Shown here in pieces: positions 7,245-25,354 of a stretch of 54,621 bases of DNA. The translations under genes were made by a program, and so were the position numbers. The DNA is taken from the IMG/VR virus record IMGVR_UViG_3300037455_000816; one strand, 5' to 3'. How positions within the stretch are numbered: the first letter of the stretch is position 1; each line of letters opens with the position of its first letter. This DNA comes from a virus (Duplodnaviria > Heunggongvirae > Uroviricota > Caudoviricetes). The notes under the pieces were generated by a model. It saw nothing but the letters and a program-made list of their open reading frames with translations, was not told the origin of the DNA and made no database searches.

Positions 7245-7313
7245 CGGGTCGGCTGTACGACCTTATGGTGAGGGTACGACCACTCACTAAGATGCTTAAA
7301 GACATCACGCAGC
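7245..7313 (+). ncRNA. guide-RNA-like scaffold S1 (69 nt)
   Basis: CGGGTCG-GCTGTA-CGACC / TGGTGAG..CTCACTA / GATG..CATC / ACGCAGC; homologous to five other copies with compensatory changes. Confidence 0.8.
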
Positions 7314-7420
7314 ATACGAGGCAGTATTGTAATTTTTACGGCTAAGATGCTGAAAGTATCATGCAGCCCCAAGAGGCTATGCTTAATATGTAAGCATCAT
7401 GCAGCCACAGGAGGCCATGC
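7314..7420 (+). CRISPR. degenerate mini-array A1 (short GATGCT/AGCATC-type repeats)
   Basis: 27-nt spacer, repeats 7341-7367 and 7376-7405 ending ATGCAGC, separated by 8-nt intervals CCCAAGAG and CACAGGAG. Confidence 0.5.
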
Positions 7421-7473
7421 TTTATTTATAGAAATACAAATCGGGATCATCCCGAATGAACATAAATACAATT

Positions 7474-7542
7474 CGGGCGGGCTATACCGCCTCATGTGGA
7501 GGGTATCACCACTCCATAAGCCTTGAAAAAGGCCTATACAGC
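7474..7542 (+). ncRNA. guide-RNA-like scaffold S2 (69 nt)
   Basis: GGCGG-GCTATA-CCGCC / TGTGGAG..CTCCATA / GCCTT-GAAA-AAGGC / TATACAGC; preceded by hairpin TCGGGATCATCCCGA. Confidence 0.8.
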
Positions 7543-7793
7543 TCACGACTGTAGAAACCATCTTCTTCTGGGCTGTTAATCACCTTAATTTGAAAGGGTC
7601 ATACAGCACACAAAGGTCGGCTTTATTTCAAAAGTGCGCTGTTAATGACCTTAATCTGAAAGGATCATACAGCCAAGAGCACTTGTGAAGTACGTTGATG
7701 AAAGCTGTTAATGACCTTTAGTTGGAAGGAACATACAGCACAAGGAGAAAATGGAGGAGCCGTCAATAACCTTTTTATAAAGGCATATACAGC
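7543..7793 (+). CRISPR. CRISPR-like array A2, 36-nt type VI-B-like repeats
   Basis: Repeats 7572-7607, 7638-7673, 7704-7739 (GCTGTTAATGACCTTAATCTGAAAGGATCATACAGC consensus) and degenerate 35-nt 7759-7793; spacers 29, 30, 30, 19 nt. Confidence 0.9.
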
Positions 7794-7877
7794 TCAATCG
7801 CAAGAAGTTGAAAATACATGATGTGAATAAAGACGGCTGTTGTATTCACCTCAAATTAAACCAATTAAATATACGTT

Positions 7878-8129
7878 ATGCCAGAAAAGAAAATTTTCTT
7901 GCCCGACGCAGAAACAGCCGGGAAACTCATAGATAATGCCTGGAAGGAGTTCAACGAACAGATGAAAAAGGCTGGAATGAACTTCGAGGGTACGCAGGTG
8001 TTTGAACTTCTTCACGACATCTTTGTCGCTGGTTACTCCTTCGGTCATAATGACTGCCTGACTATCATCCGCGACCAGCTGGAGATAGATAACTGGATGC
8101 AGTACACCAAGACACTACGGAAGAACTGA
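7878..8129 (+). CDS. hypothetical protein between array loci
   Basis: 83 aa, AT-rich UTR, followed 4 nt later by next ORF. Confidence 0.7.
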   Translation: MPEKKIFLPDAETAGKLIDNAWKEFNEQMKKAGMNFEGTQVFELLHDIFVAGYSFGHNDCLTIIRDQLEIDNWMQYTKTLRKN

Positions 8130-8133
8130 CCTC

Positions 8134-8577
8134 ATGGCACAAGACGATAGCAACATCAGAGGATGGGGAAGAATCCTTGCGAATCCTGAAAGCCAAGACA
8201 GGCTTATGAGTGCCATGAAGCTGGCCGACGATATAAAACACGATCCAGAACGAGTCAGAATCCCCGACGGTATAGATATCCGGCATATCTTCTATTTCTA
8301 CGTCAAGGACAAAGAAAAAAGAGGAATGAAGGGCTGGGTGAACGGACAGGAGGTGTTTGGCGTTCTTTCAAAGAATGAAACCGCCGCACTGTTGAATGGC
8401 TTTATCACCAAGGAACAGGCGTTCATGGCCAACAAAGGCATCCATAATAAGGTACATGAGATTGCAGACAGTCTGGCATCCAACCGCCTACAGGAAGCAA
8501 AGCTTCTACAAGAGAACTACGATAGGCTGGAGAAGGAATCACAAGAACCTTCAAAAACCAGTCGATTAAAAATATAG
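8134..8577 (+). CDS. hypothetical protein between array loci
   Basis: 147 aa; stop lies 8 nt before scaffold S3. Confidence 0.7.
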   Translation: MAQDDSNIRGWGRILANPESQDRLMSAMKLADDIKHDPERVRIPDGIDIRHIFYFYVKDKEKRGMKGWVNGQEVFGVLSKNETAALLNGFITKEQAFMANKGIHNKVHEIADSLASNRLQEAKLLQENYDRLEKESQEPSKTSRLKI

Positions 8578-8585
8578 AATATCTA

Positions 8586-8654
8586 CGGGCCAGCTGATTG
8601 GCCTCATGTGGAGGGATCATCCACTCCGCAAGATGCTTTGAAGCGTCATACAGC
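8586..8654 (+). ncRNA. guide-RNA-like scaffold S3 (69 nt)
   Basis: GGCCA-GCTGAT-TGGCC / TGTGGAG..CTCCGCA / GATGCT..AGCGTC / ATACAGC. Confidence 0.8.
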
Positions 8655-8750
8655 TACGGAGTATGAGGACGAAATCAAGACTCTGGTGTTAAAGCACCAA
8701 AAATGTAAGCATCACACAGCTGAAGAGCGAGAAGGCTTAACAATACAACT
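8655..8750 (+). CRISPR. degenerate mini-array B1
   Basis: 30-nt spacer, degenerate 36-nt repeat 8685-8720 (GGTGTTAAAG...TGTAAGCATCACACAGC), then a further ~30-nt spacer. Confidence 0.55.
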
Positions 8751-8817
8751 GGTGCATATGCGCCAATACAAAGAAAGAACAAATCGGGAAACTCCCGTAT
8801 AGTAATAAAACTAATGT

Positions 8818-8886
8818 CGGGCGGGCTGTACCGCCTTATGGTGAGGGCCACGCCACTCACTAAGCCTTACAAAAGGTCAATACAGC
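8818..8886 (+). ncRNA. guide-RNA-like scaffold S4 (69 nt)
   Basis: First 31 nt identical to S5 (23933 minus); CCTT-ACAA-AAGG stem; ends AATACAGC; preceded by hairpin TCGGGAAACTCCCG. Confidence 0.85.
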
Positions 8887-9009
8887 TCAAGAAAGGTTAA
8901 TGGTTCTGCTGTTAATGGCCTTCATTTGAAAGGAACATACAGCGGTCTTAGGGGTCAGCAAGTGCCGCGCGCAGCTGTTAATGACCTTAATGTGAAAGGA
9001 TTATACAGC
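8887..9009 (+). CRISPR. CRISPR-like array B2, 36-nt type VI-B-like repeats
   Basis: Repeats 8908-8943 and 8974-9009; spacers 21 and 30 nt. Confidence 0.88.
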
Positions 9010-9037
9010 GTCGGAAGAAACTTTATTCCGAGCCTGT

Positions 9038-9060
9038 TTTTGGACGCAGTGAGTCCAAAA
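9038..9060. terminator. probable bidirectional terminator between array B and convergent operon
   Basis: TTTTGGAC-GCAGTGA-GTCCAAAA inverted repeat. Confidence 0.6.
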
Positions 9061-9113
9061 TCTTACTCACAACATTAAAGTAATACTGAAAAACTGACAC
9101 TTGTGCCAGAATT

Positions 9114-9872
9114 TCAGCGTATGGTAAGCATTTCACACCAACATTGGGAGTACATCTTCGGAATACGTCTGTAATCCGCATATCCGTACAGGCCGCAGGA
9201 GAAAAACCGATGGCACTCCAGTATAACCGTTTTGCCGTCGGTGGTCACAGCCACGTCGAGCGTCCAAGCCTTCGGAGCCGTTTTGCCGTATGCCTTAACC
9301 ATGTTCCTGATAGCTTCACCATCGGGGAACACCAGACAGTCGCCTGAGTAGTTCCCGACGTGCTGGATCTCGCCGTTAAAGACGATGACCCGCCACTCTG
9401 AAGCTATGTCTATCATTTCAGAAACCTGACAGCGCACGAAATCCTTGCTTTCGTACCAGTCTGAAATGGTTCCCGTCCTGGCATATTTCGGTCCATTGAA
9501 ATCATCCTTGATCTTATCAAGGCTCTTCACGTAAATGCTATCGAGCTGCTTGAACCGCTCAGAAAAATCCTCACGGCTGCAAATATTCTCAATCGCCCTG
9601 CCAGCAAAGGGAAACAGACAACGCGGAACATTCAGAGGTGTCAAAGCTGCCTGTGCCTGCGGATAGTAGGTCTTCAGGAACTTGCTGACAAACTCCACCG
9701 TGCCGATGGGAATGTATTCGTCAGGGTTCAGATCGTCCATGCAGTCGATGTCTGCATAGAGCAAGCCAAGCTGCTCCTCACCCCACCACTCGTAATAGCG
9801 TTTGGCTTCTCGCATGATCCAGACAAAATCAAGCTGGATCTGACCGTTTATCGTCTGTAACAGAAAATTCAT
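9114..9872 (-). CDS. ATP-grasp domain protein (DUF4343/R2K-like)
   Basis: PIGTVEFV, YVKS...K, SEWRVIVFNGEI, AWTLDVAV, ILECH-FFSCGLYG motifs. Confidence 0.8.
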   Translation of the reverse strand: MNFLLQTINGQIQLDFVWIMREAKRYYEWWGEEQLGLLYADIDCMDDLNPDEYIPIGTVEFVSKFLKTYYPQAQAALTPLNVPRCLFPFAGRAIENICSREDFSERFKQLDSIYVKSLDKIKDDFNGPKYARTGTISDWYESKDFVRCQVSEMIDIASEWRVIVFNGEIQHVGNYSGDCLVFPDGEAIRNMVKAYGKTAPKAWTLDVAVTTDGKTVILECHRFFSCGLYGYADYRRIPKMYSQCWCEMLTIR

Positions 9873-9875
9873 ATA

Positions 9876-10157
9876 CTATTCTTTTTCAAGTTCGTCCTTC
9901 AACTTCTCATAGCCAACGATGGCCGTGCCGTTTTTCAGATAGTCGGGGTTCTTAATGGTTCCGTTCATGGCTTCATCGGACAAAAGCATAAGCTTATGCC
10001 CAATGAGGAACTTCAACCGCTCTATACCGTCTGTCAGCCAGTCGAAAGGCTTCTGGCAGAGCCGGAAGACAAACCCTACTATCAGAAACGGAAAAGCCAG
10101 TAATGAAAGCAGAATCTCTGCGATACATTCCCACTGTGCTGCACTTTTCAATGTCAT
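9876..10157 (-). CDS. hypothetical membrane protein
   Basis: 93 aa with one hydrophobic segment. Confidence 0.65.
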   Translation of the reverse strand: MTLKSAAQWECIAEILLSLLAFPFLIVGFVFRLCQKPFDWLTDGIERLKFLIGHKLMLLSDEAMNGTIKNPDYLKNGTAIVGYEKLKDELEKE

Positions 10158-10318
10158 AGCCTATTCTCCTTCATATCTTTATAACGTCTCAAAACGTCCT
10201 CATAAACCTTCTTCTGACCTTCCATCGTCTGGAAGGCATACAGATACTTATTCATCGCATCCTTGATGCACTTGTGAATGAGCATCATATCTTCCCAAGT
10301 CAATTCCCTGTCCGGCAT
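10154..10318 (-). CDS. small hypothetical protein (54 aa; not in ORF track)
   Basis: MPDRELTWEDMMLIHKCI...; ATGA overlap with next gene. Confidence 0.6.
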   Translation of the reverse strand: MPDRELTWEDMMLIHKCIKDAMNKYLYAFQTMEGQKKVYEDVLRRYKDMKENRL

Positions 10319-10322
10319 AGTA

Positions 10323-10757
10323 TTATAATCCCATATTAGTTCTTAACTGGCCAAGGAGATTATCAAATCTCTCCACAGCCTTCGTCCTGTCAACAAAACG
10401 ACCTTTCAGATATTCGTCGATGTCAACATTCGGATTGAATGTGATGTTATCATAGTGGATATAGACCCCGATAAGGGTTTTGCAGTCAGTGCCGCTACAG
10501 GTTGTACCCAAGCAGCTGCAACAAAGCACTACATCCACCTGATCAGACATAACATAATTGGCTCTGGTGACCACCTTGTCTATGCAATAGACACTATCAG
10601 GATCGTTCTCTTTGGTGAAGAACTTTCCTATCAGATGGGCATACCGTTTGGCGGTAATCTTCTCTATTGCCGCCGCACGTTTCTTTTTGCCAGCGAACAA
10701 ACGACGGATAAGCGTTTGCTCATGCTCAATGGCCTTGATGTATTCCTGATGATTCAT
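10323..10757 (-). CDS. hypothetical protein
   Basis: 144 aa, operon context. Confidence 0.7.
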   Translation of the reverse strand: MNHQEYIKAIEHEQTLIRRLFAGKKKRAAAIEKITAKRYAHLIGKFFTKENDPDSVYCIDKVVTRANYVMSDQVDVVLCCSCLGTTCSGTDCKTLIGVYIHYDNITFNPNVDIDEYLKGRFVDRTKAVERFDNLLGQLRTNMGL

Positions 10758-10777
10758 AACTCATTATAATTCGTTAA

Positions 10778-11122
10778 TCACTCGTTATTATATTCGTAGT
10801 CGATGGTATCTGAGTCTATCAGATCCTTCATCTTCTGGTTGATGTCTATGCCATTGTGCATATAGTACAGAAAGATGCTGTTCGTCAACGCCAGAAGACT
10901 TTCCTCCGTGAGGTGCATCTGGTTCAGGGTGTTCCTCCCCGTTGACTTCGGGTTTTCGATGGCCAGCACAAAGGTATTCTCCTCCGTTCTGGCGACGGTA
11001 CACATCCTGTGATCCTTGAAAACCGACCGCACCATGTCCGTGATGGCAAGTTCCTTCATAACCTCGCCGCTATCAGCGTCGGTGAGGGTTACTTTCCCAA
11101 TTTTCAAACAATCCTTTTCCAT
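10778..11122 (-). CDS. hypothetical protein
   Basis: 114 aa, operon context. Confidence 0.7.
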   Translation of the reverse strand: MEKDCLKIGKVTLTDADSGEVMKELAITDMVRSVFKDHRMCTVARTEENTFVLAIENPKSTGRNTLNQMHLTEESLLALTNSIFLYYMHNGIDINQKMKDLIDSDTIDYEYNNE

Positions 11123-11133
11123 TGATATCAGTC

Positions 11134-11544
11134 TTAAATGAGATACTTCAACACATGAACGATGCTTTTCTCCTTGCAGTCCTCCGGGGATTCCTTGCTG
11201 GTAACGGAGAAAGCCCTGCGAAAGGCGTTATATTTATCGTTCATCCATTCGCCTGATCCAATCCAGAGCCAGTACAGGACTCCGCAGGTCTTCTTTCCGT
11301 CCGCGCCCTTAATCTTACCGACAATCGGGGAAACGGAAATCTCGATGTGAAGCTGATGCTTCTGACGGATCCACTGGCAGACCACCTCCTGCGTCGGGGC
11401 TGGGATAAACTGCTCCCTGTTGTCGGAAGACAGTTCAAGGAGGTTGCCAGAGCGCAAGGAATAGACCTTACGCCACTGGCCCTCAAAACCTTTCTCCTGA
11501 AGGAGCTTGGCCGTCTCGAAAGTGACAATCTGCTCTTCTGCCAT
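11134..11544 (-). CDS. Bacteroidota phage-type hypothetical protein (start revised to MAEEQ)
   Basis: IVTFETAKLLQEKGF...APTQEVVCQWIRQKH motif recalled from Bacteroides phage proteins. Confidence 0.7.
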   Translation of the reverse strand: MAEEQIVTFETAKLLQEKGFEGQWRKVYSLRSGNLLELSSDNREQFIPAPTQEVVCQWIRQKHQLHIEISVSPIVGKIKGADGKKTCGVLYWLWIGSGEWMNDKYNAFRRAFSVTSKESPEDCKEKSIVHVLKYLI

Positions 11545-11545
11545 A

Positions 11546-11845
11546 TCACTTGCTCTCATCGGGATAGAACTCATCGGCATACGCCCAAGAGATCATCCTG
11601 ACCGTGTTGCAGAAGAAAGTCCAGGACTGCTTACCGTTGGCGGGGTTGGGATAGACCTTCAGGCCGCCACGCTCACTGCGTACCAGCAGCTCCTTGTGAT
11701 TGTCAATACCCGGTTTCGGCTCCTCGGCGGGGTCAAACCATAACTGTTTGATGGCACAGATGCCACCTCTGACGAAATCGTCCTTACTGTTCTTTGCGTC
11801 GCGTTTCGCATTGTCCAGCAGCAGATCCAAAAATTCCTTTGTCAT
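11546..11845 (-). CDS. hypothetical protein (DUF551-like W..P motif)
   Basis: LWFDPAEEPKP...ELLV...ISWAY. Confidence 0.65.
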   Translation of the reverse strand: MTKEFLDLLLDNAKRDAKNSKDDFVRGGICAIKQLWFDPAEEPKPGIDNHKELLVRSERGGLKVYPNPANGKQSWTFFCNTVRMISWAYADEFYPDESK

Positions 11846-11867
11846 AATAACCTATTTTTGATGAATA

Positions 11868-12194
11868 CTAATGTGAAATCGCTCCAATGGCCAGAGACTC
11901 CTTACGTGCCTCACGAATGAGGCGCTTCAAGGCGCATCGGGCAAAGTGATTATTGCCCGATCCTCTGGTATAATAGCGGTACTGGGTGCGTCCCATGCCA
12001 CTCCACATCCTGTAATAGCTGTGATGACGGTGGCAGGTCAGGGACTTTCCGAAATAGGCAAACCAGAGATTGCCGAACGACGGGCAAATGGTGGTACTCC
12101 AGAGTTCCATCAAGGCCACGCCTACTACGGTGAGAACCATCATACCGATGACACACCAGACAACTACACCCGTATAGAAGAAAAATTCTCTCAT
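11868..12194 (-). CDS. hypothetical membrane protein
   Basis: N-terminal TM segment, 108 aa. Confidence 0.65.
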   Translation of the reverse strand: MREFFFYTGVVVWCVIGMMVLTVVGVALMELWSTTICPSFGNLWFAYFGKSLTCHRHHSYYRMWSGMGRTQYRYYTRGSGNNHFARCALKRLIREARKESLAIGAISH

Positions 12195-12205
12195 ATCTGA
12201 TCGAT

Positions 12206-12598
12206 TTAAAAATAAAAACCCTTTTCAGCTTTCTTGGCCAAATTACGGCCAATCATATCCCTGTAGTCAAGGAAACGCGAGTTGAGATAAGTTACCTTCT
12301 TTGCCATGATCCTGCCTACGGTGTCGTGGTCGAAGGATCTGTACTTCTCGTTTTCCTCCGGCGTAGCGTCGGACATCGGGCGCAGAATCGGCTTGAAATG
12401 CTCAACATTGATAAAATCCCCGTCGCCGAAGAAATCAATGGCTGCATCCACCTCCTGCACCGTATCGGTGCCGTTATAAAGGTGTGTGACATAGAGGTTA
12501 TTGAGCTTTCCGGCCATGCCGTTAAGGTCTATCCAAACGCCGTGCGGCAGATAGCCGCCCAACGCCTCTATAAGCTCCTGTTTGTCTTCCTTACTCAT
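12206..12598 (-). CDS. phage-type hypothetical protein
   Basis: YLPHGV...FKPILRPMSD...YLNSRFLDYRDMIGRNLA motif. Confidence 0.7.
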   Translation of the reverse strand: MSKEDKQELIEALGGYLPHGVWIDLNGMAGKLNNLYVTHLYNGTDTVQEVDAAIDFFGDGDFINVEHFKPILRPMSDATPEENEKYRSFDHDTVGRIMAKKVTYLNSRFLDYRDMIGRNLAKKAEKGFYF

Positions 12599-12612
12599 CT
12601 TCTACTTTCGTT

Positions 12613-12849
12613 TTATTCATCCTTACTCTCCAGTTTCTCCAGTCCGTGACGGAGAAGGATCAGAAGATCCACTGGCTTTATATCCTCACTGGCAAAGGCT
12701 TCTACCACCTCAATGGCTTTCTTGAAGCCTCTGATATACTCATTCCTGCAGAGCTTTTCAAGCCTGCGCCTGCGCTCAATCTGCTGGCTCTCGTACCAGA
12801 CCTTATGAATGGCGTAATCATCGAATATCTTCTGTAGCTTACTGTCCAT
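12613..12849 (-). CDS. hypothetical protein
   Basis: 78 aa, overlaps recD2 stop. Confidence 0.6.
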   Translation of the reverse strand: MDSKLQKIFDDYAIHKVWYESQQIERRRRLEKLCRNEYIRGFKKAIEVVEAFASEDIKPVDLLILLRHGLEKLESKDE

Positions 12850-15067: not shown

Positions 15068-15068
15068 C

Positions 15069-16400: not shown

Positions 16401-16613
16401 TTACTGCAGTCGCTGGTCGATAAAGTCCAGCTCCTCATCGTGATACCACCTGTCACCGGCTTCGTCGTAATGCCAGGGGTTATAGAACACCAAGAGACCA
16501 AGCTGACCGTGACGGTCATCAACCATCACCTGCTGGCCGGTCTTCTTCACTCTGGCAGCAATCAGCTGCTTGTCAATGCCGCCGTTAGCGGCTGTCCTTA
16601 CACTCGTATTCAT
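16401..16613 (-). CDS. hypothetical protein (start revised to MNTSV)
   Basis: 70 aa, operon context. Confidence 0.6.
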   Translation of the reverse strand: MNTSVRTAANGGIDKQLIAARVKKTGQQVMVDDRHGQLGLLVFYNPWHYDEAGDRWYHDEELDFIDQRLQ

Positions 16614-16627
16614 AGAAAATCGTATTA

Positions 16628-16924: not shown

Positions 16925-16925
16925 A

Positions 16926-17429
16926 TCAGTAACTTTTTTCGTTTAACTTCACATACTTGCCTTCAATGCCGCTGTTACGCAGCACCTCGTCATTATGCCG
17001 TCCCCAAGCCACAAGGCAGTTGCCGAAAAACGGGTTACTCTTCATCGGTGAGCCTTCCGGAGTCAGGAACTTCACCCGCTTACGCATGAAGAGCATACTG
17101 TCGGCAGTCGGGAAGATGACTTCCTGGAACAGCACGTTATCGGTACGGTTCACCAGCAGGGCAATGCCGTTGTCATGCCGTGCCAGTTTCTCCACAAACT
17201 GACGGAGCAACACCCTCGAATAGGGAGGATTGAGCCACACGCGGCTGTGATCCCAGTCCTGTTGCAGACCGTCATCCTCCTTGGTATAGTGCAAGGCGGC
17301 GGTGTCGAAAGGGCGAACCTGCGGACTGCACGGATCCAAATCGAATGGCCCAAGGGCTTCGATGATCCAGCGGGGCGTGTACCACTCATCGCTCGATACG
17401 ATGCGGTTCCTTTGCTGTCTTGTGTCCAT
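16926..17429 (-). CDS. phage-type DNA N6-adenine methyltransferase (Dam family)
   Basis: SDEWYTP, FDLDPCS, DDGL.QDW, WLNPPYS catalytic motif. Confidence 0.9.
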   Translation of the reverse strand: MDTRQQRNRIVSSDEWYTPRWIIEALGPFDLDPCSPQVRPFDTAALHYTKEDDGLQQDWDHSRVWLNPPYSRVLLRQFVEKLARHDNGIALLVNRTDNVLFQEVIFPTADSMLFMRKRVKFLTPEGSPMKSNPFFGNCLVAWGRHNDEVLRNSGIEGKYVKLNEKSY

Positions 17430-17431
17430 AA

Positions 17432-18475
17432 TCAGAACGGCGTAAAATCATTATCGTCTTCTTTCGGCTCGGCCTTCTTCGGTTCAGGCTTACAACCGAA
17501 CTTAGCCACATAGTCCTCCGGAGAGAGCTTGTATTTCAACTTGAAGCCATACTTGGCCGACTCAATAGTGTCCTTATCCCAGCCCTGCTCATTGGCAATG
17601 AGACGGCGGGCAGAATTAAGCGTCTCAGAGATCTGCTTCTGAAGCTTCTCCTTCTCCTTGTCAACCTTCGGGGGTTCCGGCTTACGCATCCGATAGTTGA
17701 GCTTGACATTCGGATAGAAGCGACGGATGACAGGAGAGAAAACCTGAATGAAGCGTTTCTCAATCATGGTATATTCCTCCGGTAATACTTGCAGGATCAG
17801 AACGGTATCGTTCTCGTAAAGGTCTTCATAAACGATATTCTTGAAGACCTTGCGCATCTCATCGCCGATGGCAGCCTGACAGAGCGCAGTCTGGCAGTCG
17901 CGCCAACGCTGGCGGTCATCCTCACGCTTCTGCTTGATGCGAGTCTCCTTTTCTTCGTATTCCTGATTGATGTACTTCTGCTTCATCATGTAGATCTCAT
18001 TCTTGAAATCCTTCAAGGCACAGGTAATGACCATCGGGTCAACCTTTCCCCAGAATTTTCCGAAATGACCAATCTTGAAGCGATAGAAGAAAAGCATAAT
18101 CTCAGAGAGCTTCATGTCCTTATACTCGGCAGCGATCATACGGGCAAGGTTTTTAACCTGCTCATCATCCATATTCTTGGAACCAGAGAAAGTGTTAAGT
18201 TCGCCAATATGCTCAGCAAGCCAAGAGGCAGAGGAACCAGGGCCATAGGCAGCGTCAAGAATTGACACGGCTGACGATTCCTGCATCAATGCTGCACGTT
18301 CATCAGCACCGAAGTTAATCTGACGTACTGGGTTATACGTCACACAGAACTTCTCATAGGATGGGCAAAGGTTCCTGAAGTTGGCTGCCTTCTGCTCTAA
18401 GCTCTGACATAACTCGGACTGTTCCTTTAAGCATGTCTTCGCGGCTACGATAGCCGTTATTATTGTCTGCTCCAT
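17432..18475 (-). CDS. DUF6633-like replication accessory (putative helicase loader)
   Basis: LSEIMLFFYRFKIGHFGKFWGKVDPMVITCAL motif; follows DUF4373 initiator; 122-nt overlap makes start uncertain. Confidence 0.65.
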   Translation of the reverse strand: MEQTIITAIVAAKTCLKEQSELCQSLEQKAANFRNLCPSYEKFCVTYNPVRQINFGADERAALMQESSAVSILDAAYGPGSSASWLAEHIGELNTFSGSKNMDDEQVKNLARMIAAEYKDMKLSEIMLFFYRFKIGHFGKFWGKVDPMVITCALKDFKNEIYMMKQKYINQEYEEKETRIKQKREDDRQRWRDCQTALCQAAIGDEMRKVFKNIVYEDLYENDTVLILQVLPEEYTMIEKRFIQVFSPVIRRFYPNVKLNYRMRKPEPPKVDKEKEKLQKQISETLNSARRLIANEQGWDKDTIESAKYGFKLKYKLSPEDYVAKFGCKPEPKKAEPKEDDNDFTPF

Positions 18476-19328
18476 TGCTTCTACTGTTTTTGTTCAACAT
18501 ATTTTCCTGAATGATCATCCAATTACAAAAGTGATGCTTCGCGTCACCAAGGTTATCATGGTGCTTACAGGAAATCTTCGCTTCACCAGCCCAACGGTCA
18601 AGATATTCGTTCAGCATCTGTTCGCTGGTGCCAAGAAACTTAAAACGCATAAAGACGTGTTCCTTCCATATAGGGCTACGCCTCATTTCAGAAACTTCCG
18701 TATCGATGTCGGCGCACACCTTCGCATCGTCAGCTCCAATCTCCGGGGCTTCTTCTTCGTGTGTGTGTGGGCGCGGATAACCACACGAAGTGGGGTTATC
18801 TTTACTTTTCTTTACTTTACTTTGTGTACTTTTCGCGGAGTTTATCGGGGTTTCCTCCGAACTATCATCCGTTTCTTCTGGAAAAACTATGGTTTCTTCC
18901 GTAATAACGTGGGTTTTTTCCGAAATAACCTTATTTCCCTTTCCGTCCACAAGCAAGTAAGGCATATCTCCAGATAAACGGCGCTTGGCAGCAGTACAGA
19001 CAGCGAAGAATCGCTCCTGAATACCGTGCGAGGTAAGCACCTTATTATCGTCATACATCGTCTTGTCAAAGAGTCCGATACTGATACAGTAATTGATGAT
19101 GTCTTTTACCGTAACTTCCTCAATGCCAGTGGCTTCGAATACAACAAAGGGTATCTCTTCATCCCATTCAAGATAATAGCCAGAGGCGTATATCTGACAC
19201 AACAGATAGTGGTACACCGGTACTGCCTGAATACCCTTATAGCGTATCAGCTTACGGATCTTAATGTCCTGATAGAAATTCACATCATTGGTGAAATAAT
19301 CAAGCCCTTGCTTCTTTGGTCGTGCCAT
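18354..19328 (-). CDS. DUF4373 (Lin1244/Lin1753-like) replication initiator
   Basis: MARPKKQGLDYF...DIKIRKLIR...YLLCQIY..GYY...GLFD...VLTSHGIQERF; central 7-aa repeats. Confidence 0.85.
   Translation of the reverse strand: MARPKKQGLDYFTNDVNFYQDIKIRKLIRYKGIQAVPVYHYLLCQIYASGYYLEWDEEIPFVVFEATGIEEVTVKDIINYCISIGLFDKTMYDDNKVLTSHGIQERFFAVCTAAKRRLSGDMPYLLVDGKGNKVISEKTHVITEETIVFPEETDDSSEETPINSAKSTQSKVKKSKDNPTSCGYPRPHTHEEEAPEIGADDAKVCADIDTEVSEMRRSPIWKEHVFMRFKFLGTSEQMLNEYLDRWAGEAKISCKHHDNLGDAKHHFCNWMIIQENMLNKNSRSNGADNNNGYRSREDMLKGTVRVMSELRAEGSQLQEPLPIL
18851..18929. repeat. 21-bp-period iteron-like repeats inside the initiator gene
   Basis: Units start at 18851, 18872, 18893, 18914 (TTTCTTCCG[AT]AATAAC-like). 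Confidence 0.7.
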
Positions 19329-19821
19329 AATGGGTATTATTTAGGAATAAATGTCCGGTATTTGTAGTTTCTTCCGTAATAACGTGGGTTTCTTCCGAAA
19401 TAACTGCCGTTATTTCCGAAATAACTCCCGAAACACTATCCTTAACGAAACAGTAAGGTGCCGAAATAGCGGCACTGCAGTCAGAGTAGTCACCACCAGA
19501 GGTAACGATATAGCGGGCGGGAGGTGTCAGCACACTCCGCTCGTTAAATACCTTCCTATCCAAGAAATCAGCGTCCGTCATGCGACGGATGACCATCTTA
19601 ATGAGGTTGTCGCTGAACTCCGGGTACTCCTGGGTGATAGCAGCACGGAACTTCCGATTATACTTAGCCTCCATACCATGGGAACGGATATGCTCTAAGA
19701 TAATCAGCGATAAGCCATAACCCTTTATGCCAAATTCCTCCCTTAATGACTTAATGAGAGGGAAATTCCTGTAATTCGTGCTATGTAAGAAGCACTCATC
19801 GGCCTTCAAAGTTGTATTCAT
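19300..19821 (-). CDS. second DUF4373-like protein
   Basis: LREEFGIKGYGLSLIILEHI...FLDRKVFNERSVLT; same VISEETHVITEET repeat. Confidence 0.7.
   Translation of the reverse strand: MNTTLKADECFLHSTNYRNFPLIKSLREEFGIKGYGLSLIILEHIRSHGMEAKYNRKFRAAITQEYPEFSDNLIKMVIRRMTDADFLDRKVFNERSVLTPPARYIVTSGGDYSDCSAAISAPYCFVKDSVSGVISEITAVISEETHVITEETTNTGHLFLNNTHYGTTKEARA
19368..19425. repeat. second 21-bp-period iteron-like repeat set
   Basis: Units at 19368, 19389, 19410; 19368-19404 matches 18893-18929 at 36/37 nt. Confidence 0.7.
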
Positions 19822-19845
19822 ACCAAATCTGTTAAGAGGTTAGAC

Positions 19846-20067
19846 TTATTCCTGATCAAAGCCCTCCATGAGAACCTTCATGGCGCTTTCCTGGGCCGCG
19901 AACACGGTAGCACCGTTACGTCGCGCCTGCTCAAAGGCTTCGGCGGCATCGTCGGCCCGCTGGTCAATAAACTCCACGTCATGCTGACGCTCGTCACCAA
20001 TGTCCTGAAGATGATTCAGGAGGTACATCCCGTAATAGGATCCTTCAATACGTTTCTTTTCTTCCAT
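19846..20067 (-). CDS. DUF1896-like protein (Bacteroides conjugative-element family)
   Basis: SYYGMYLLNHL...FIDQRADDAAEAFEQARRNG...AQESAMKVLMEG. Confidence 0.7.
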   Translation of the reverse strand: MEEKKRIEGSYYGMYLLNHLQDIGDERQHDVEFIDQRADDAAEAFEQARRNGATVFAAQESAMKVLMEGFDQE

Positions 20068-20091
20068 AATGATAAAACTTAAAATGTTACA

Positions 20092-20328
20092 CTACGCAAA
20101 CTTGCTCTTACGCTCATCCTTGCTGCGGAACACAACGCTCCAGCCGACAGCCGTAAAGGCCACGAGAGCGAAGATGATCGCACCTGCGAGGATGTTGTAA
20201 TAGGGCTGGTCACCCTCCTCAGTCTCGACGAAGTTGAACAACGCCCAGGAGAGGAACAGGGTCATCAACGTGCCAATAACGGCATAAAAAAGATCTTCTT
20301 TCTTCATATCGTAAATATTATAGGTCAC
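20092..20328 (-). CDS. small membrane protein (2 TM)
   Basis: Two hydrophobic helices. Confidence 0.65.
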   Translation of the reverse strand: MTYNIYDMKKEDLFYAVIGTLMTLFLSWALFNFVETEEGDQPYYNILAGAIIFALVAFTAVGWSVVFRSKDERKSKFA

Positions 20329-20602
20329 TCACATATTTAATCTCATAGGTGAAATACGCATTAGGGTCATCCACAAAGGAGGCAGCCTGCTCCTCCTCAG
20401 TGTGCTTCACCTGCTCATCCTTGATGCAGATAAACGAGAACATCAGCGCAAGCAGCAGCACCTCTATGATATAGATGGTAAGGCGTAGCTTGTCGCTTCT
20501 GCCGTAACGGCGCAGGAGCATACCACAGGCGCACATGGTGGCCAGTATAGCCGCCATCATCCATCCGAAATGCTCACTGGCAAGATAACTGATCATGCTC
20601 AT
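20318..20602 (-). CDS. small membrane protein (2 TM; start revised to MSMISY)
   Basis: Two hydrophobic helices; start 1 nt after upstream stop. Confidence 0.65.
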   Translation of the reverse strand: MSMISYLASEHFGWMMAAILATMCACGMLLRRYGRSDKLRLTIYIIEVLLLALMFSFICIKDEQVKHTEEEQAASFVDDPNAYFTYEIKYVSDL

Positions 20603-20603
20603 G

Positions 20604-20972
20604 CTATTTCTCCTTTTCTTCCTTGTCTTCTTCGATGATACGCGGAACGAAGTGCTTCCTGCAGACACAGTTAGGATCGTGCATGAAAGACGTGCTGTAG
20701 AGCAAGTAGGTATGACCCTCATACTCATACTTGGTGAAGTGCTTATCCTGCTCCTTCGGCTCAGGAGTGATCTCACGGCTAACCTCACTGGCGATATCAT
20801 CGGAGTTGTTGATGATATAAATGAGGTTGATGATAGCTGCAAAACCGAAGACGATACTCAGGAATATCATCACGGTACCACGACCGCCAAGGCTGACAAC
20901 CTTCTTACGCCAGCCGTAACAGATGACGGCAGCGATAATCAGCAGAACGGTGAAGAGAATCTGGTGTATCAT
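20604..20972 (-). CDS. membrane protein (2 TM)
   Basis: Hydrophobic N-half; C-terminal HDPNCVC. Confidence 0.65.
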   Translation of the reverse strand: MIHQILFTVLLIIAAVICYGWRKKVVSLGGRGTVMIFLSIVFGFAAIINLIYIINNSDDIASEVSREITPEPKEQDKHFTKYEYEGHTYLLYSTSFMHDPNCVCRKHFVPRIIEEDKEEKEK

Positions 20973-21637
20973 ACGCCCCTCCTTTCCTTGAAAGCGGTTC
21001 CAACATCATTGATGCAATGCGCCGTCTGAGGATCGTCCTTGATACCAAAGCCGCCCTCTTCCTTGGTGGCGCAGTGGGAACAGAGGGTACAGCTGTCATC
21101 CACCCAGTGACACGTTCCGTGGTCGGGATGGTAGCAGGCGTTAAGCTCCGTACAGCCGCAGACACGGCAGACACCCGGTATCGGCTCTTCGAGGGCCTTG
21201 AAAAGGTCTTCCTCCTTATAGAAATAGCCGTCAAAGGCGAGGTACATCAGCTCCGGACGCACGGTGGAACCGTAGTCCATCACGAAGACACGCTTTCCCG
21301 CACCTTCCATATAGCCCGCCTCTACGTGGGAGCTATGACCGCATGGCAAGCAGAGGATGCAGGTGTCGGCATCGGACATGGCCATGAAATGATCGTCGAA
21401 ACGCTCATTGGCCTTCTTGTCCTGTAGCAGTTTGGAAAACTCCTCCGGGGTGAGCGTACCGCTCATATAAGCATCCTTGACATTATGGATGCGCGAGACG
21501 CTATCCCAGACATTCTTGTCATTACGGCCATGAGGGTGACGGAAATCGTACACCTTGTGGCCGCGCTTGCGCAGTTCCTTGACTAACGCGGGCTGGCTGC
21601 CGTTGCGCCAGCTGCTTGATACATAGATTCTTGACAT
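20969..21637 (-). CDS. nucleoside 2-deoxyribosyltransferase-like fold protein with Cys-rich C-terminal domain
   Basis: RIYVSSSWRN...GHKVYDFR...AMSDADTCILCLPCGHSSHVEAGY; C-term CRVCGC...C...C.W...LCSHC. Confidence 0.7.
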   Translation of the reverse strand: MSRIYVSSSWRNGSQPALVKELRKRGHKVYDFRHPHGRNDKNVWDSVSRIHNVKDAYMSGTLTPEEFSKLLQDKKANERFDDHFMAMSDADTCILCLPCGHSSHVEAGYMEGAGKRVFVMDYGSTVRPELMYLAFDGYFYKEEDLFKALEEPIPGVCRVCGCTELNACYHPDHGTCHWVDDSCTLCSHCATKEEGGFGIKDDPQTAHCINDVGTAFKERRGV

Positions 21638-21642
21638 ATCCT

Positions 21643-21786
21643 TTATTCTTTATCGTTATTCACATTGTCGGTGTGGAAGCGCCTGTCATTCATGTCTATC
21701 AGACGAAGAATGAGGTAGTCAACCGTGAAGGTGATGACAACCACCGCCGCGAAAGCTCCAATGATATCTATTACAGACAGCTCCAT
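21643..21786 (-). CDS. small single-TM protein (start revised to MELSV)
   Basis: 47 aa, one hydrophobic helix. Confidence 0.55.
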   Translation of the reverse strand: MELSVIDIIGAFAAVVVITFTVDYLILRLIDMNDRRFHTDNVNNDKE

Positions 21787-21799
21787 AGTCGCATGTAGT

Positions 21800-21949
21800 T
21801 TACTTATACTTCTTACGGGAATATCCGGGACTGAAATCCTCGTCACAGTGGTCAATCACATTGTGTTTGGCAGGGTCAGCCGTGCTGCAATACAGATCGC
21901 AGCTCGGTCGAAGACCACATCCGTTGCCAAGGCATCGTAAACCAGCCAT
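21800..21949 (-). CDS. small 4-Cys protein (start revised to MAGLR)
   Basis: CLGNGCGLRPSCDLY...HC; paralog of 21957-22112. Confidence 0.6.
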   Translation of the reverse strand: MAGLRCLGNGCGLRPSCDLYCSTADPAKHNVIDHCDEDFSPGYSRKKYK

Positions 21950-21956
21950 AAGCAGA

Positions 21957-22112
21957 TCACTTAGAGGGAAGGAAATCCCGATGTTCATCACCGCAGTCAT
22001 ACTGCCAGAGCCAGTTACCTTCGGGAAGGGTATTACCTTCCACGTATCTGGCACAACGCTCTCTCAGGGGGCAGCCAACGCCCTTGCAATAGTAGAAATT
22101 CTTGTTAGGCAT
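21957..22112 (-). CDS. small 4-Cys protein (51 aa; not in ORF track)
   Basis: MPNKNFYYCKGVGCPLRERCARY...YDCGDEH. Confidence 0.65.
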   Translation of the reverse strand: MPNKNFYYCKGVGCPLRERCARYVEGNTLPEGNWLWQYDCGDEHRDFLPSK

Positions 22113-22116
22113 ATCG

Positions 22117-22623
22117 TCATTTGTTTGTCGTTAGGAATAATCGGTGTACGTGATACTGCAAGGTCTCGCCGTCATAGCTCTGATCGGCATGGATGACGAA
22201 ACAGACAGTAGTGTCGAGAAAAGAGTCCTGGCGGGCTTCCGTCTTCTGCTGCTCCTTCCAGAGTCCCGGAAGGTAGCCTGTGGTAAGCTCCGTGAAGTAT
22301 TCGAGCAAGTCACCCTTCGGAACATTGGGCGACACAAAGATGATATCGTTCTGGAGGTTCTTCAGGGGTGTGTCCTTGATAAAGTCCAGCACCATCTGCT
22401 TGAGTTGGACGCGCTGGCCCACCTCCACCACATTGCAGAAGAACTCCAGTTCCTTGTCACTGTTACGCAGCAGATAGATGTTGCCGCGAGTGAGTGGGCC
22501 GGTCCACTTCTGGGTGATGTCCGTGCGGAACAGGTAATTGAGAAAATTCTTCAGGTGGTTCATATCGTTGAACCCTTTGGAATTGTCAGCCTCGTAAGTG
22601 ACCTTGTAATCATTGAAATTCAT
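22117..22623 (-). CDS. hypothetical protein
   Basis: 168 aa, operon context. Confidence 0.7.
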   Translation of the reverse strand: MNFNDYKVTYEADNSKGFNDMNHLKNFLNYLFRTDITQKWTGPLTRGNIYLLRNSDKELEFFCNVVEVGQRVQLKQMVLDFIKDTPLKNLQNDIIFVSPNVPKGDLLEYFTELTTGYLPGLWKEQQKTEARQDSFLDTTVCFVIHADQSYDGETLQYHVHRLFLTTNK

Positions 22624-22627
22624 AGGC

Positions 22628-23128
22628 TCATTCGTTATTTTTATCGGATTTGAAATCTATAAACCAGAAATACATCCCGGCGGCACAGATAACCAGCGTG
22701 ACAGTAACGGCCAGCCATGTGAGCCAGAAGAAGAGAGTGAACAACGCCATGAGCCAAGAGGCGAAGGTGGCGTAGATCAGGATGGCGTTCATGCCCTGCG
22801 GCATCCTCTTATAGAGGTATGTGCAGTTATTCGTCAGGTCGAAGACACCGCCGAAGCAGACCGCCATCAGGAACACGACGGAGAAATACTGGAACTCCGC
22901 AGGGTGCCATCCGTCACGGTGCAGGGAAATAGCGCACATCGTCAGGATGGCCACAGAGAACAAGATGAAGGAACACTTGTAGTTGCGCCGTTTGATACGA
23001 CGGATGACGGACAGGCTGTAACGACCCTTGGAACGGTCATTCTCCCTGTCAAGGACTGCGTTCAACGCGAGATAGGCAGCGCCTATCAGCGAAAGCAGCA
23101 ATACGAAAAGATAATAAACTGTAATCAT
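22628..23128 (-). CDS. integral membrane protein (~5 TM)
   Basis: Multiple hydrophobic segments. Confidence 0.7.
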   Translation of the reverse strand: MITVYYLFVLLLSLIGAAYLALNAVLDRENDRSKGRYSLSVIRRIKRRNYKCSFILFSVAILTMCAISLHRDGWHPAEFQYFSVVFLMAVCFGGVFDLTNNCTYLYKRMPQGMNAILIYATFASWLMALFTLFFWLTWLAVTVTLVICAAGMYFWFIDFKSDKNNE

Positions 23129-23274
23129 TCCTCATCGAGTTTTTCAGGATGGAAAGAGTAACAGGAAAGGTTGCCGCCACCGACACGCCACGCGATATAC
23201 TTCTCGCAGAGCTTTACGATGGTCGCATCGTCGGGAATCCGACTGACTATCTGTTTGAACTTCTTTCCGTCCAT
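23125..23274 (-). CDS. small hypothetical protein (start revised to MDGKK)
   Basis: 49 aa, ATGA overlap downstream. Confidence 0.55.
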   Translation of the reverse strand: MDGKKFKQIVSRIPDDATIVKLCEKYIAWRVGGGNLSCYSFHPEKLDEE

Positions 23275-23301
23275 TGTTACACTATGTTTAAAATTCTCTG
23301 T

Positions 23302-23376
23302 TGGTATCCCCACCGGGAATCGAACCCAGATCTACGGCTTAGGAGGCCATTGTTCTATCCATTGAACTATGAGGAC
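23302..23376 (-). tRNA. tRNA-Arg(CCT)
   Basis: Minus strand GTCCTCA..TGGATAGAAC..ATGGC-CTCCTAA-GCCGT..GGTTCGATTCC..TGGGGAT-A-CCA; full cloverleaf, encoded CCA. Confidence 0.95.
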
Positions 23377-23388
23377 AGGCAGGCCCCG

Positions 23389-23778
23389 TTAGACGGGAGC
23401 CTCCGAAAGTTCTGTTATCTGGTCACAAGCCTTCAGGATGGCAAGGGTGCTTTCGTCATCCTTGGGCAGCAAACCTACCATCACCTTGGAAATGGTGCGC
23501 TTGACCTTCTCGTTCTTACTCATGAGATCCTTTGCCGTCGAGACAACAAAGTTGCGCTCTTCGAGGGTCACACGGCGCATCTCAAGCATTACCTTCTGCT
23601 CTTCGAGCTTCACCTTCTGCCGTTCGGTCTCGGCACGGTAGAGGTTTGCCTTGGCATTGACGATCTTCAGCTGGAGGTCAACCTTGCGGAGGTCGAAATC
23701 ATTCTCCATCTTCTCGGTCTTCAGGAAATCAAGATCCTCTTCGAGGGTCTGATGCCTAACAGTTACGTCTTGATTCAT
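23389..23778 (-). CDS. coiled-coil hypothetical protein
   Basis: 129 aa, charged helical. Confidence 0.7.
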   Translation of the reverse strand: MNQDVTVRHQTLEEDLDFLKTEKMENDFDLRKVDLQLKIVNAKANLYRAETERQKVKLEEQKVMLEMRRVTLEERNFVVSTAKDLMSKNEKVKRTISKVMVGLLPKDDESTLAILKACDQITELSEAPV

Positions 23779-23870
23779 ATCTAATGAAATTTAATTATTA
23801 ATCCTATATCGATGATTCACTATGTGAGTGATGTTTAGCTGTATGGAAGCAGTTATGCAGTTATGCAGCA

Positions 23871-23933
23871 GCTGTATGATTTGCACCTTGGCGAGTAGCC
23901 TCGCCCTCACCATAAGGCGGTACAGCCCGCCCG
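23871..23933 (-). ncRNA. guide-RNA-like scaffold S5 (63 nt), 9 nt after the dCas12f-like stop
   Basis: CGGGCGGGCTGTACCGCCTTATGGTGAGGGC...CTCGCCAAGGTGCAAATCATACAGC; followed 25 nt later by a second CATACAGC (23838-23845). Confidence 0.85.
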
Positions 23934-23942
23934 GTAAAAACA

Positions 23943-25199
23943 TTATGCGTCATCTTCGTCTTCGTCTTCAGAGTTACCCTTCTTTTTCTTCTTAGGCGGG
24001 TCCTGAACCTTGATATTGTACTTATCAGCCTTGTAGTGAATCTTGTCCTTCAGGGAGTAGTACGACCAGTTGCGCAGGATGGTATGCTCTCCGCGCTCGT
24101 CGGCCTCCTTGGCCAGCTTCTCGCGGCGCTCCTGGTCAACAAGGACAATCTGGCCGCACTTGTGGCTGATGGCGATATCCACCAGCTGCTTGGCATAGGT
24201 GTGGAGCTTCGTGTCAACATAGTTGATCTCCGCATCCTCGAAACGCTTGATGGCCTGCATCTTCTTCTTGCGGCCCTTGCCGCCCTTATTATAGCGGCAG
24301 TTGGTCTGGCAGCGGCGCAAAGCCTCCTGAATCTGGCGGCGGCGGTAAAGGAACTCCTCGGCGGTGCCGATCTCAAACCACTTGATGCCGCTGTCATACT
24401 CCTTGGCCGCACGGACATCGCAGGCACAGATGATGGGGTTGGCAATACCCAGACGGGCGTAGAGAACCTTATCGGGGTCAAGCTCCACCTCCTTCTTGGG
24501 GATATCCACACAGAGATAGAGGAAGATCTTCGTGACCTTCTTGTCCTTCTTCGGGTCAAACTTCTTCTCAAAGGCAAGGGATGACGTACACATCCTGTAG
24601 CCGGTGGCCTCGCCTTCCTTACCGTCGGTGGCATCGTACTTCATCTGATTGATGATACGCTCCACGATCAGGCGGTTGCCGCTACGGTCATAGCCGAAGC
24701 GCATCTGGAATGGCACTCCCACCAGTGAGAAGAAACAACCGGTGCGCTTCTCGCCCTCGCCGTTGACATACTCGGCGAAACGGAGATTCACGAAACGCTT
24801 AGTGGCGTAGGGAACGGGCAGGGATGCCTTATAAGAACGTAAGCTGCGGTCGAACATTCCACCGTTCTTACGGTCATCCTTATACATCTTCTGCACGTTC
24901 TGGATTACAGCGGAAACCATACCCATGTCAGCCTTACCCTTGAAAAGGCGGCTGGCTAAGGCATAGACCGCGTTCTGACGGCTCACCTTATTGTCCTTGG
25001 CACCGATGAAGGTAATAACCTCACGGCTGGGCTTGTCAAGGACGGCCATAAGGTGGTCGAGACTAAACTCCGAACTGGCGCAGAGGTTGGCTACCTGCCA
25101 GGCATAGTAGCGATTCTCGTACAACTTATCGTAGTACGCCTTGCGCTGTGCCTCGTCGTTTTCGGTGACGAATACCTGAATCTTTCTTGTGATAATCAT
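23943..25199 (-). CDS. nuclease-dead TnpB/Cas12f-like RNA-guided DNA-binding protein
   Basis: MIITRKIQV N-terminus, CTSSL..KIFLYLCVDIP, RuvC-I VLYARLGI (Asp->R249), bridge helix RRRQIQ..KGGKGRKKK, RuvC-II IVLVDQ (Glu->V354), LRNWSYYSL...YKA, then ends without Zn finger or RuvC-III. Confidence 0.85.
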   Translation of the reverse strand: MIITRKIQVFVTENDEAQRKAYYDKLYENRYYAWQVANLCASSEFSLDHLMAVLDKPSREVITFIGAKDNKVSRQNAVYALASRLFKGKADMGMVSAVIQNVQKMYKDDRKNGGMFDRSLRSYKASLPVPYATKRFVNLRFAEYVNGEGEKRTGCFFSLVGVPFQMRFGYDRSGNRLIVERIINQMKYDATDGKEGEATGYRMCTSSLAFEKKFDPKKDKKVTKIFLYLCVDIPKKEVELDPDKVLYARLGIANPIICACDVRAAKEYDSGIKWFEIGTAEEFLYRRRQIQEALRRCQTNCRYNKGGKGRKKKMQAIKRFEDAEINYVDTKLHTYAKQLVDIAISHKCGQIVLVDQERREKLAKEADERGEHTILRNWSYYSLKDKIHYKADKYNIKVQDPPKKKKKGNSEDEDEDDA

Positions 25200-25247
25200 A
25201 CTTGAATGGTTTTAAAATTGTTGATACTGATGTAATTTCCTGCCGGT

Positions 25248-25354
25248 GCTGTATATCCCGTCCTGACCATAATCTGCTTTGCCAAACGGAAGAAGGCAAG
25301 GGCGGGACTCTGCGAGTGGATTCCCTCTCGCATCAAGGCCGAACAGCCGACCCG
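25248..25354 (-). ncRNA. extended scaffold S6 (107 nt) in the 5' leader of the dCas12f-like gene
   Basis: GGTCG-GCTGTT-CGGCC / TGCGAG..CTCGCA / long TCCCG..CTTGCC..GGCAAAG..CGGGA stem / TATACAGC; ends 48 nt before ATG; preceded by GCGGGAA..TTCCCGC hairpin. Confidence 0.8.

Follow-up and report, generated by a model that had tools for sequence, protein, structure and literature searches.

What would a Cas12f-like protein with no nuclease site be doing on a mobile element, flanked by two guide-RNA-like sequences, with four more heading arrays some 15 kb off? The question is raised by IMG/VR virus record IMGVR_UViG_3300037455_000816, a 54.6-kb stretch of DNA that was analyzed over its full length and is called the window here; in it, a gene for a 418-aa protein lies between two copies of a structured scaffold (S5, S6), and the remaining copies (S1 to S4) stand at the head of CRISPR-like arrays. 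The answer we favor, with a probability of roughly 0.6, is that this nuclease-dead Cas12f (dCas12f) and the element's guides, at least 16 in number, may silence rival mobile elements by RNA-guided binding without cutting. For the window itself, such a binding-only role in interference is most likely by analogy with related loci, where targets could be traced. An original prediction made from the letters of the window had proposed a multi-guide, non-cutting DNA binder, and by sequence this still appears to be the best reading.

A natural nuclease-dead Cas12f

The protein had been predicted to be a RuvC-dead relative of Cas12f and TnpB, and the comparisons made here place it with Cas12f, in RuvC-inactive form. 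Its best PDB match by phmmer is 9n9c, “Nuclease-deactivated Cas12f” (E 4.5e-39), followed at lower scores by active Cas12f chains (3e-31 to 1e-13) and TnpB (4e-14), and an AlphaFold2 model (predicted local distance difference test score, pLDDT, 67) retrieves 9n9c_A (E 3.6e-19) and then 9n9m_A in Foldseek. Pfam has no match for it, PHROGs has only a weak “transposase” match, and a protein-pattern scan of IMG/VR turned up no relative. The position of the RuvC-I Asp is held by Arg249 (F, Y or S in relatives), and E357, which HMMER pairs with the RuvC-II Glu, is K, H, S or T in relatives. The chain stops about 20 residues past YKADKYNIKV, the last motif that it has in common with Cas12f; alignments to active Cas12f chains end at residue 415-427 of 497-508, and the zinc ribbon and RuvC-III, which lie in the 80-90 residues by which the active chains run further, are both missing.

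Loss of the RuvC-I Asp and C-terminal truncation are found throughout the clade. There are 870 homologues at E<1e-5, and mean column identity among 21 family members is 69%; a family this large and well conserved is, to judge from its sequences, under selection and not decaying. The idea of a decayed relic was dropped, given the strong conservation of the family, the presence of the locus in RNA libraries and the perfect-match spacers of relatives. On the same comparisons, the 418-aa protein is a natural nuclease-dead Cas12f of the dCas12f-sigmaE family.

Could it instead be a TnpB, or a TldR regulator derived from one? Cas12f and dCas12f chains outscore TnpB by far, and the scaffolds are separate from the open reading frame (ORF), with some of them free-standing 15 kb away, unlike the TnpB/TldR omegaRNA, which, in an IS200/605 element, overlaps the 3' end of its gene. 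Assignment to type V-F fares no better: the catalytic residues of an active RuvC are absent, and of an adaptation module (Cas1, Cas2, Cas4) no family was found in the window.

One guide RNA scaffold, near and far

The six scaffold copies, their positions, their ends and the identity of the first 31 bases of S4 and S5 were all recovered as originally described, using a repeat finder, the raw sequence, alignment and a covariance model (Table 1). S1 to S4 align without gaps, and in the alignment the third arm of S6 is about 40 nt longer than that of the others. Five of the six copies end in ATACAGC (S1 has ACGCAGC), as do both the 36-nt repeats, which have a 66-nt period, and the shorter ones. 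On one point the earlier description needs adjustment: the ATACAGC-type ends are real, but the guide begins one base earlier, after ...ACAG, as seen both in the protospacer matches of relatives and in the exchange of the S6 guide described below. The six copies score E 1e-15 to 1e-23 with a covariance model that was itself built on them; chance is not the explanation, as the model goes on to detect further copies, co-oriented with homologous genes and next to them, in other sequences.

Table 1. Positions in the window of the scaffolds, guide cassettes and genes discussed in the text.
Feature	Position	Strand	Description	Basis
Scaffold S1	7245-7313	+	69 nt; ends ACGCAGC	Repeat finder, raw sequence, alignment, covariance model
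Scaffold S2	7474-7542	+	69 nt; ends ATACAGC	Repeat finder, alignment, covariance model
Scaffold S3	8586-8654	+	69 nt; ends ATACAGC	Repeat finder, alignment, covariance model
Scaffold S4	8818-8886	+	69 nt; ends ATACAGC	Repeat finder, alignment, covariance model
Scaffold S5	23871-23933	-	Begins 9 nt past the dCas12f TAA stop	Covariance-model match, 76 bits, E 5e-20
Scaffold S6	25249-25354	-	5' leader of the dCas12f gene	Covariance-model match, 64 bits, E 2e-16
S5 downstream part	Guide 23870 to ~23845; short repeat ending 23838; second guide	-		Sequence
S6 guide cassette	25224-25248	-	~25 nt; sole segment replaced in L006 and L007	
Cassette A1	7245-7426	+	S1 and two short repeats ending 7367 and 7405, each then a short guide; 38-nt period	
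Cassette A2	7474-7830	+	S2, guide, three 36-nt repeats (7572, 7638, 7704), 30-nt spacers, degenerate repeat ending 7793	
Cassette B1	8586-8760	+	S3, guide, one short repeat ending 8720, another guide	
Cassette B2	8818-9039	+	S4, 21-nt guide, two 36-nt repeats (8908, 8974), 30-nt spacers	
Two ORFs, 83 aa and 147 aa	7878-8577	+	Between array cassettes; on the same highly covered RNA contig	
dCas12f gene (P0001), 418 aa	23943-25199	-		phmmer against PDB, AlphaFold2 and Foldseek, family alignments
178-aa coiled-coil protein	25497-26033	-	Directly upstream of dCas12f	tblastn

Covariation supports the predicted fold. Hairpins 1 and 2 covary already among the six copies in the window; over 40 copies from 44 sources (807 kb searched with the covariance model), 92.5% of cells are paired and 15 of 22 pairs show double changes. 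A pseudoknot that is absent from the model, joining the hairpin 1 loop to the final six bases, is 89% paired with four of its six pairs covarying, against 31-48% pairing in slid controls, and loop and end types occur together (GCTGTA with TACAGC, GTTGCA with TGCAAC, GTTGTA with TACAAC). The full unit has two hairpins that covary, a third that is variable, and a pseudoknot of the hairpin 1 loop with the 3' ACAG(C); the repeat unit, whether 36 nt or shorter, has the third hairpin and pseudoknot strands only, and in both types of unit the guide lies 3'.

Do these sequences belong to dCas12f? In the 807 kb searched, each of the 34 covariance-model matches that lie outside the window has the orientation of a dCas12f gene no more than about 1.5 kb away, and this holds also beside distant homologues in Parapedobacter-type, Leadbetterella, Olivibacter and Chitinophagaceae genomes; the co-occurrence test first suggested thus comes out for dCas12f and not for another gene. 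Related loci have the same layout throughout, a scaffold and then repeats copying its 3' module, and the 3' ends of the repeats change from locus to locus along with the scaffold loop and 3' end (ACAGC, GCAAC and ACAAC types). A structured scaffold with a 3' guide beside the gene is what is expected of a single guide RNA, and both the covariation and the exchange of a guide cassette directly 3' of S6 agree with this. The identification of the six scaffolds as the guide RNA scaffold of dCas12f, and the assignment of the remote arrays to it, both anticipated in the original prediction, are therefore supported at the level of sequence.

The arrays might conversely be orphans or hijackers meant for a host effector such as Cas13b, or decoys against host CRISPR, lying on the same element as dCas12f only by coincidence. 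The lack of adaptation genes on the element would suit this, as would the 36-nt repeats, 30-nt spacers and palindromic repeat ends, which we take to be the pattern of type VI-B. The likeness to VI-B repeats that had been remarked on is superficial, extending only to the 36/30-nt geometry: the repeat is the last hairpin of the scaffold plus a pseudoknot strand, co-varying with the dCas12f scaffold, and there is no cas13b in the window nor any ORF of Cas13 size, the largest being a 742-aa RecD-like helicase. Every related locus starts its arrays directly from a scaffold beside dCas12f, and host bins G001-G006 showed no further array built on these repeats. Coincidental proximity is accordingly very improbable.

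What the guides of relatives match

BLAST of relatives' arrays against their own genome bins gave targets for three of them (L049, L012 and L013). These relatives have proteins 52-57% identical to that of the window and lie on phage-like elements in Prevotellaceae and Bacteroides bins; six of their 30-nt spacers match sequences in the same bin at 27-30 of 30 positions. For L049 there are two 30/30 matches 650 bp apart on contig G002:C122 (E 9e-10 and 4e-8), one within a 163-aa gene and the other over the start codon and 5' untranslated region (UTR) of a 97-aa HTH_17-like gene, as well as one 28/30 match on G002:C15. The L012 matches (27/30 and 28/30) are on a 6.6-kb contig, G001:C440, in a 238-aa gene and an AAA_25 helicase gene, and that of L013 (29/30) is on G004:C15, just past an HTH_17 gene in a 5.5-kb island between the host nrd and feoB genes. 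The annotated targets are all small integrase-bearing islands with an HTH_17 excisionase-like gene, and they further carry either a G2P-type rolling-circle Rep or a DUF6371 primase-like protein and a helicase. A 209/238-aa protein is common to two target islands, and one island has a 197-aa protein in common with its carrier. The 5' flanks, known from these relatives only, are TCC in all three L049 cases, TTC(A) for L013, and CTC and CCCA for L012, so that four of the six protospacers have a flank of TTC/TCC type. The array of a Mu-like phage, L010, gave only 17-19-nt matches to a common coding repeat in its own bin, which were judged unreliable or due to chance.

Is binding at such sites more likely to start transcription or to block it? 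The closest solved relative is the dCas12f of a dCas12f-sigmaE system, sigma-linked genes (L017, L037) are flanked by the same scaffold family, and Bacteroidota have many extracytoplasmic function (ECF) sigma factors (PMC13472631). The protein might then activate transcription by recruiting a host ECF sigma factor, or an undetected one encoded by the element, to guide-matched sites, possibly through its conserved 178-aa neighbor as an adaptor. We consider this unlikely. No Sigma70 family was found among the ORFs of the 54.6-kb window, nor within 10 kb of the gene in L001-L007, although a very diverged sigma factor would escape Pfam; the same search does find a Sigma70_r4 gene directly upstream of the distant homologues L017 and L037, which serve as positive controls. 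An operon with an rpoE gene whose product bears a C-terminal extension, as in dCas12f-sigmaE systems, is thus seen neither in the window nor around the genes of its relatives. Spacers of 30 nt, compared with guides of 14-16 nt, also speak against activation, as do protospacers lying in coding regions and over the start codon of foreign islands, where blocking fits better than starting transcription.

The guides of the window

For the window's own guides, the search of genomes, viral collections and the window that had been suggested gave no target. In the window itself there are no self-targets (10-22 nt, 0-5 mismatches); INPHARED phages and PLSDB plasmids gave only chance-level matches, and exact IMG/VR scans with six spacers gave none. 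Scans of Joint Genome Institute (JGI) metagenome contigs with the S3 and S6 guides found no target and did not return even the arrays, so the relevant samples are probably outside the collections scanned. Among 534 Bacteroidaceae-type genomes (401 at family and 133 at genus level; the two best candidates per genome were scored) there was no reliable target.

The S3 guide does share 23 of 23 bases (8661-8683) with a conserved stretch (peptide YEDEIKT) of a glycogen-debranching-type gene in about 18 Prevotella-type genomes. As a target this was judged unreliable: the match leaves out the six bases at the start of the guide, and a TTC flank is lacking. Taken at face value, it would be in keeping with guides that regulate genes of the carrier or host (control of lysogeny or transfer, or host reprogramming) in place of rival elements. 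We regard this as unlikely too, if a shade less so than activation: besides the defects of the S3 match, no guide matches the 54.6-kb window (the element runs on for about 45 kb more), and all six well-supported protospacers of relatives are in foreign islands. Autoregulation through S6, in the leader of the dCas12f gene, was likewise dropped, and seems unlikely because the 25-nt cassette that forms its guide can be exchanged and matches nothing in the window.

Evidence that this cassette is swappable comes from L006 and L007. At 96-97% identity to the window, they have unrelated sequence in place of the 25 nt after the ...ACAG of S6, with scaffold and downstream leader unchanged, and their S5 region is 100% identical to that of the window. 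In contigs from rumen runs (X20, X2 and X1; RNA and DNA), a single spacer or a guide-repeat-spacer block is replaced, and there are deletions between scaffolds as well. L012 and L049 have scaffolds 96% identical and no spacers in common.

Deep RNA contigs, set against a flat DNA run, argue for transcription of the array locus at a level well over that of the remaining element. Contigs covering 7337-8777, 7392-8514 and 7463-7747, from metatranscriptomes of three studies, have depths of 36, 14 and 17; most other RNA contigs of the 20-kb stretch, including those of the dCas12f gene, have depths of at most 4, with one at the array edge at 7.8. In these rumen RNA libraries the locus has 4-10 times the depth found over the rest of the element, as against an even DNA depth of about 29 over the stretch.

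A proposed mechanism, and points against it

In the mechanism proposed here, array transcripts would be cut into guide RNAs; dCas12f, probably a dimer like Cas12f, would locate a 5' flanking motif, form an R-loop and stay bound to the uncut DNA. This would block the transcription of rival mobile elements, which are perhaps satellites of the carrier, and possibly their replication or excision too, and would involve no sigma factor. A wider proposal, which we offer tentatively and would rate at somewhat less than an even chance, is that the phage- and element-borne dCas12f clade as a whole is a multiplexed weapon that works without cleavage and is aimed at small integrative islands, which may be satellites exploiting their carrier, with guides renewed without a Cas1-Cas2 of the element's own and with arrays acting in trans from anywhere on it.

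Several points weigh against silencing by DNA binding. No target was found for any guide of the window in any collection searched. The evidence on targets comes from three relatives in metagenome bins, where carrier and target may not share a cell, and in both L012 matches the flank is not TTC and there are mismatches beside it. The RNA data are assembled contigs from runs picked by way of this same stretch, and speak to the presence of transcripts, not to their processing or ends. Finally, each of the four guides that match inside a gene is antisense to its mRNA, which a mechanism acting on RNA would predict equally well: array transcripts, with or without dCas12f, might pair with target mRNAs and block their translation or stability, and the protospacer over the start codon and 5' UTR of the HTH_17-like gene would be well placed for this. 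Each island's genes share one strand, however, so that the four antisense cases amount to only two independent observations, and one protospacer is intergenic and on the sense strand. The prevalent TTC/TCC flank points to recognition of double-stranded DNA of the type V kind, and the solved relatives bind double-stranded DNA according to the titles of their structures. All in all, pairing with mRNA appears quite improbable as the main mode of action.

Relation to known systems

How new is this? The original prediction had called it a candidate new RNA-guided system, which goes too far: by sequence, the system of the window belongs to a protein and RNA family that is already known, here in a new setting, and is not a new kind of system, because both protein and scaffold belong to the published dCas12f family (PDB 9n9c; PMC13472631), for which array-linked cases without rpoE had already been noted. 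In the dCas12f-sigmaE systems, the single guide RNAs carry 3' guides of 14-16 nt, and the flank is 5'-G (Hoffmann, Wiegand et al., Nature 2026, PMC13472631). The same paper describes an rpoE-less dCas12f cluster beside CRISPR arrays, with a repressive role proposed, and a Sphingobacterium locus with full guide RNAs alongside arrays of scaffold-like repeats (Extended Data Figs 1a,b and 3d); both are mentioned briefly and in chromosomal contexts, with a target at a resistance-nodulation-division (RND) efflux promoter in a Chitinophagaceae bin. It makes no mention of phages, mobile elements, Bacteroidales, a pseudoknot, remote arrays or targets in rival elements (PMC13472631), and a full-text literature search found no paper on a natural phage- or element-borne dCas12f.

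The window resembles dCas12f-sigmaE (9n9c/9n9m) in protein family, RuvC-I loss and C-terminal truncation, and in a guide RNA scaffold of the same family, with a 3' guide, encoded beside the gene. It differs in sequence (about 30-35% identity), in its location on a mobile element, in having no rpoE or HTH partner, and in its many guides and arrays of 30-nt spacers, some of them 15 kb from the gene; relatives of its protein target foreign islands and not promoters of susCD type. With the rpoE-less cluster and the Sphingobacterium locus, compared by their descriptions, it shares arrays beside dCas12f, a structured guide RNA ahead of them, and scaffold-like repeats. What sets the window apart from the published cases, as far as sequence comparison goes, is the combination of no sigma factor, an integrative mobile element as carrier, partly remote arrays and guide cassettes swapped between 96%-identical copies.

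With type V-F Cas12f (Al3Cas12f 9nzo/9nzr, CnCas12f1 8hr5, AsCas12f 8j12) the system shares fold, domain order and a guide 3' of the repeat, and the 5' flank of relatives' protospacers may be of its T-rich, C-ending kind. Unlike type V-F, the window protein has no catalytic site, zinc ribbon or RuvC-III, the scaffold is fused to the first guide with no separate trans-activating CRISPR RNA (tracrRNA), and cas1, cas2 and cas4 are absent.

Interference between mobile elements without cutting has precedents in type V-M Cas12m and in plasmid-borne type IV-A CRISPR, both of which silence by binding. Element-borne arrays aimed at rivals are known from phage ICP1, whose CRISPR, a cutting type I-F system, is directed against satellites, the phage-inducible chromosomal island-like elements (PLE). 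The effectors of these three are unrelated or only distantly related to dCas12f, so the likeness would be one of role, under the binding-without-cutting reading.

The natural dCas12f family is extended by these loci from chromosomal, sigma-linked activators to a phage- and integrative-element clade in gut and rumen Bacteroidales. Most of the homologues, at least 870 in number, are unannotated, and CRISPR-like arrays have been retained or regained in the clade. Should the relatives' targets be typical, mobile elements would hold down rival islands by programmable binding without cutting, in parallel with type IV and Cas12m and with a protein of just 370-420 residues. The compact protein, ~70-nt scaffold, multi-guide layout and defined pseudoknot are of practical interest for small CRISPR-interference tools, and the loci make guide-cassette exchange without an adaptation module testable.

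The carrier element and neighboring genes

By gene content, the window is an integrative mobile element, and its hosts are Prevotella-type bacteria of the rumen: it encodes an integrase, a cI-type HTH protein, a Toprim primase, a RecD-like helicase, a Lin1244-type initiator, Dam, ParA, SSB and YopX. As first reported, it has no cas1, cas2, cas4 or cas13, none of these being among the Pfam families of its ORFs. Close homologues of its dCas12f (52-62% identity) are on a Mu-like phage and other replicative elements in rumen and gut Prevotellaceae bins, with no sigma factor. Those at 29-36% identity have a Sigma70_r4 gene directly upstream or adjoin AcrB or SusC/D genes, which fits the published loci.

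The 178-aa coiled-coil protein has no Pfam or PHROG family, and is kept in L003/L004 (46% identity; L003 3307-3816) and L016 (36%; 9234-9758); on this pattern it could be a partner of dCas12f or just part of a shared backbone. The 83-aa and 147-aa ORFs between the array cassettes match no known family and have no homologue in related loci.

Immediately past the last spacer of cassette B2 is a 23-nt palindrome (TTTTGGAC...GTCCAAAA type hairpin; 9038-9060), which several genomes from the genus of G002 also contain, at 23/23 identity and in some cases as tandem copies 60 nt apart. It has the look of a repetitive extragenic palindromic (REP)-like or terminator hairpin and gives a hint of the host's genus. 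Two clusters of 21-nt direct repeats (18850-18950 and 19346-19425; five overlapping 59-nt copies in repeat family D1) lie inside and at the junction of the Lin1244_N-type initiator ORFs (18354-19328 and 19300-19821), and are probably iterons of the element's origin. Some 500 nt downstream of the dCas12f/S5 unit there is a tRNA-Arg(CCT) gene (23302-23376, minus strand); a tRNA 94% identical to it (L016 12105-12171) adjoins the arrays of the distantly related element L016.

The Mu-like phage L001/L002, with a 61%-identical dCas12f, encodes a protein of the Acb2/Tad1-hairpin family (710-955) about 9 kb upstream, of the sponge type acting against Thoeris and the cyclic-oligonucleotide-based antiphage signaling system (CBASS). 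In L011, from a Prevotellaceae bin, a 55%-identical dCas12f (10001-11233) with a single downstream scaffold lies between genes for a WbsX glycosyltransferase and a GH20 hexosaminidase, and may be a chromosomal, domesticated copy.

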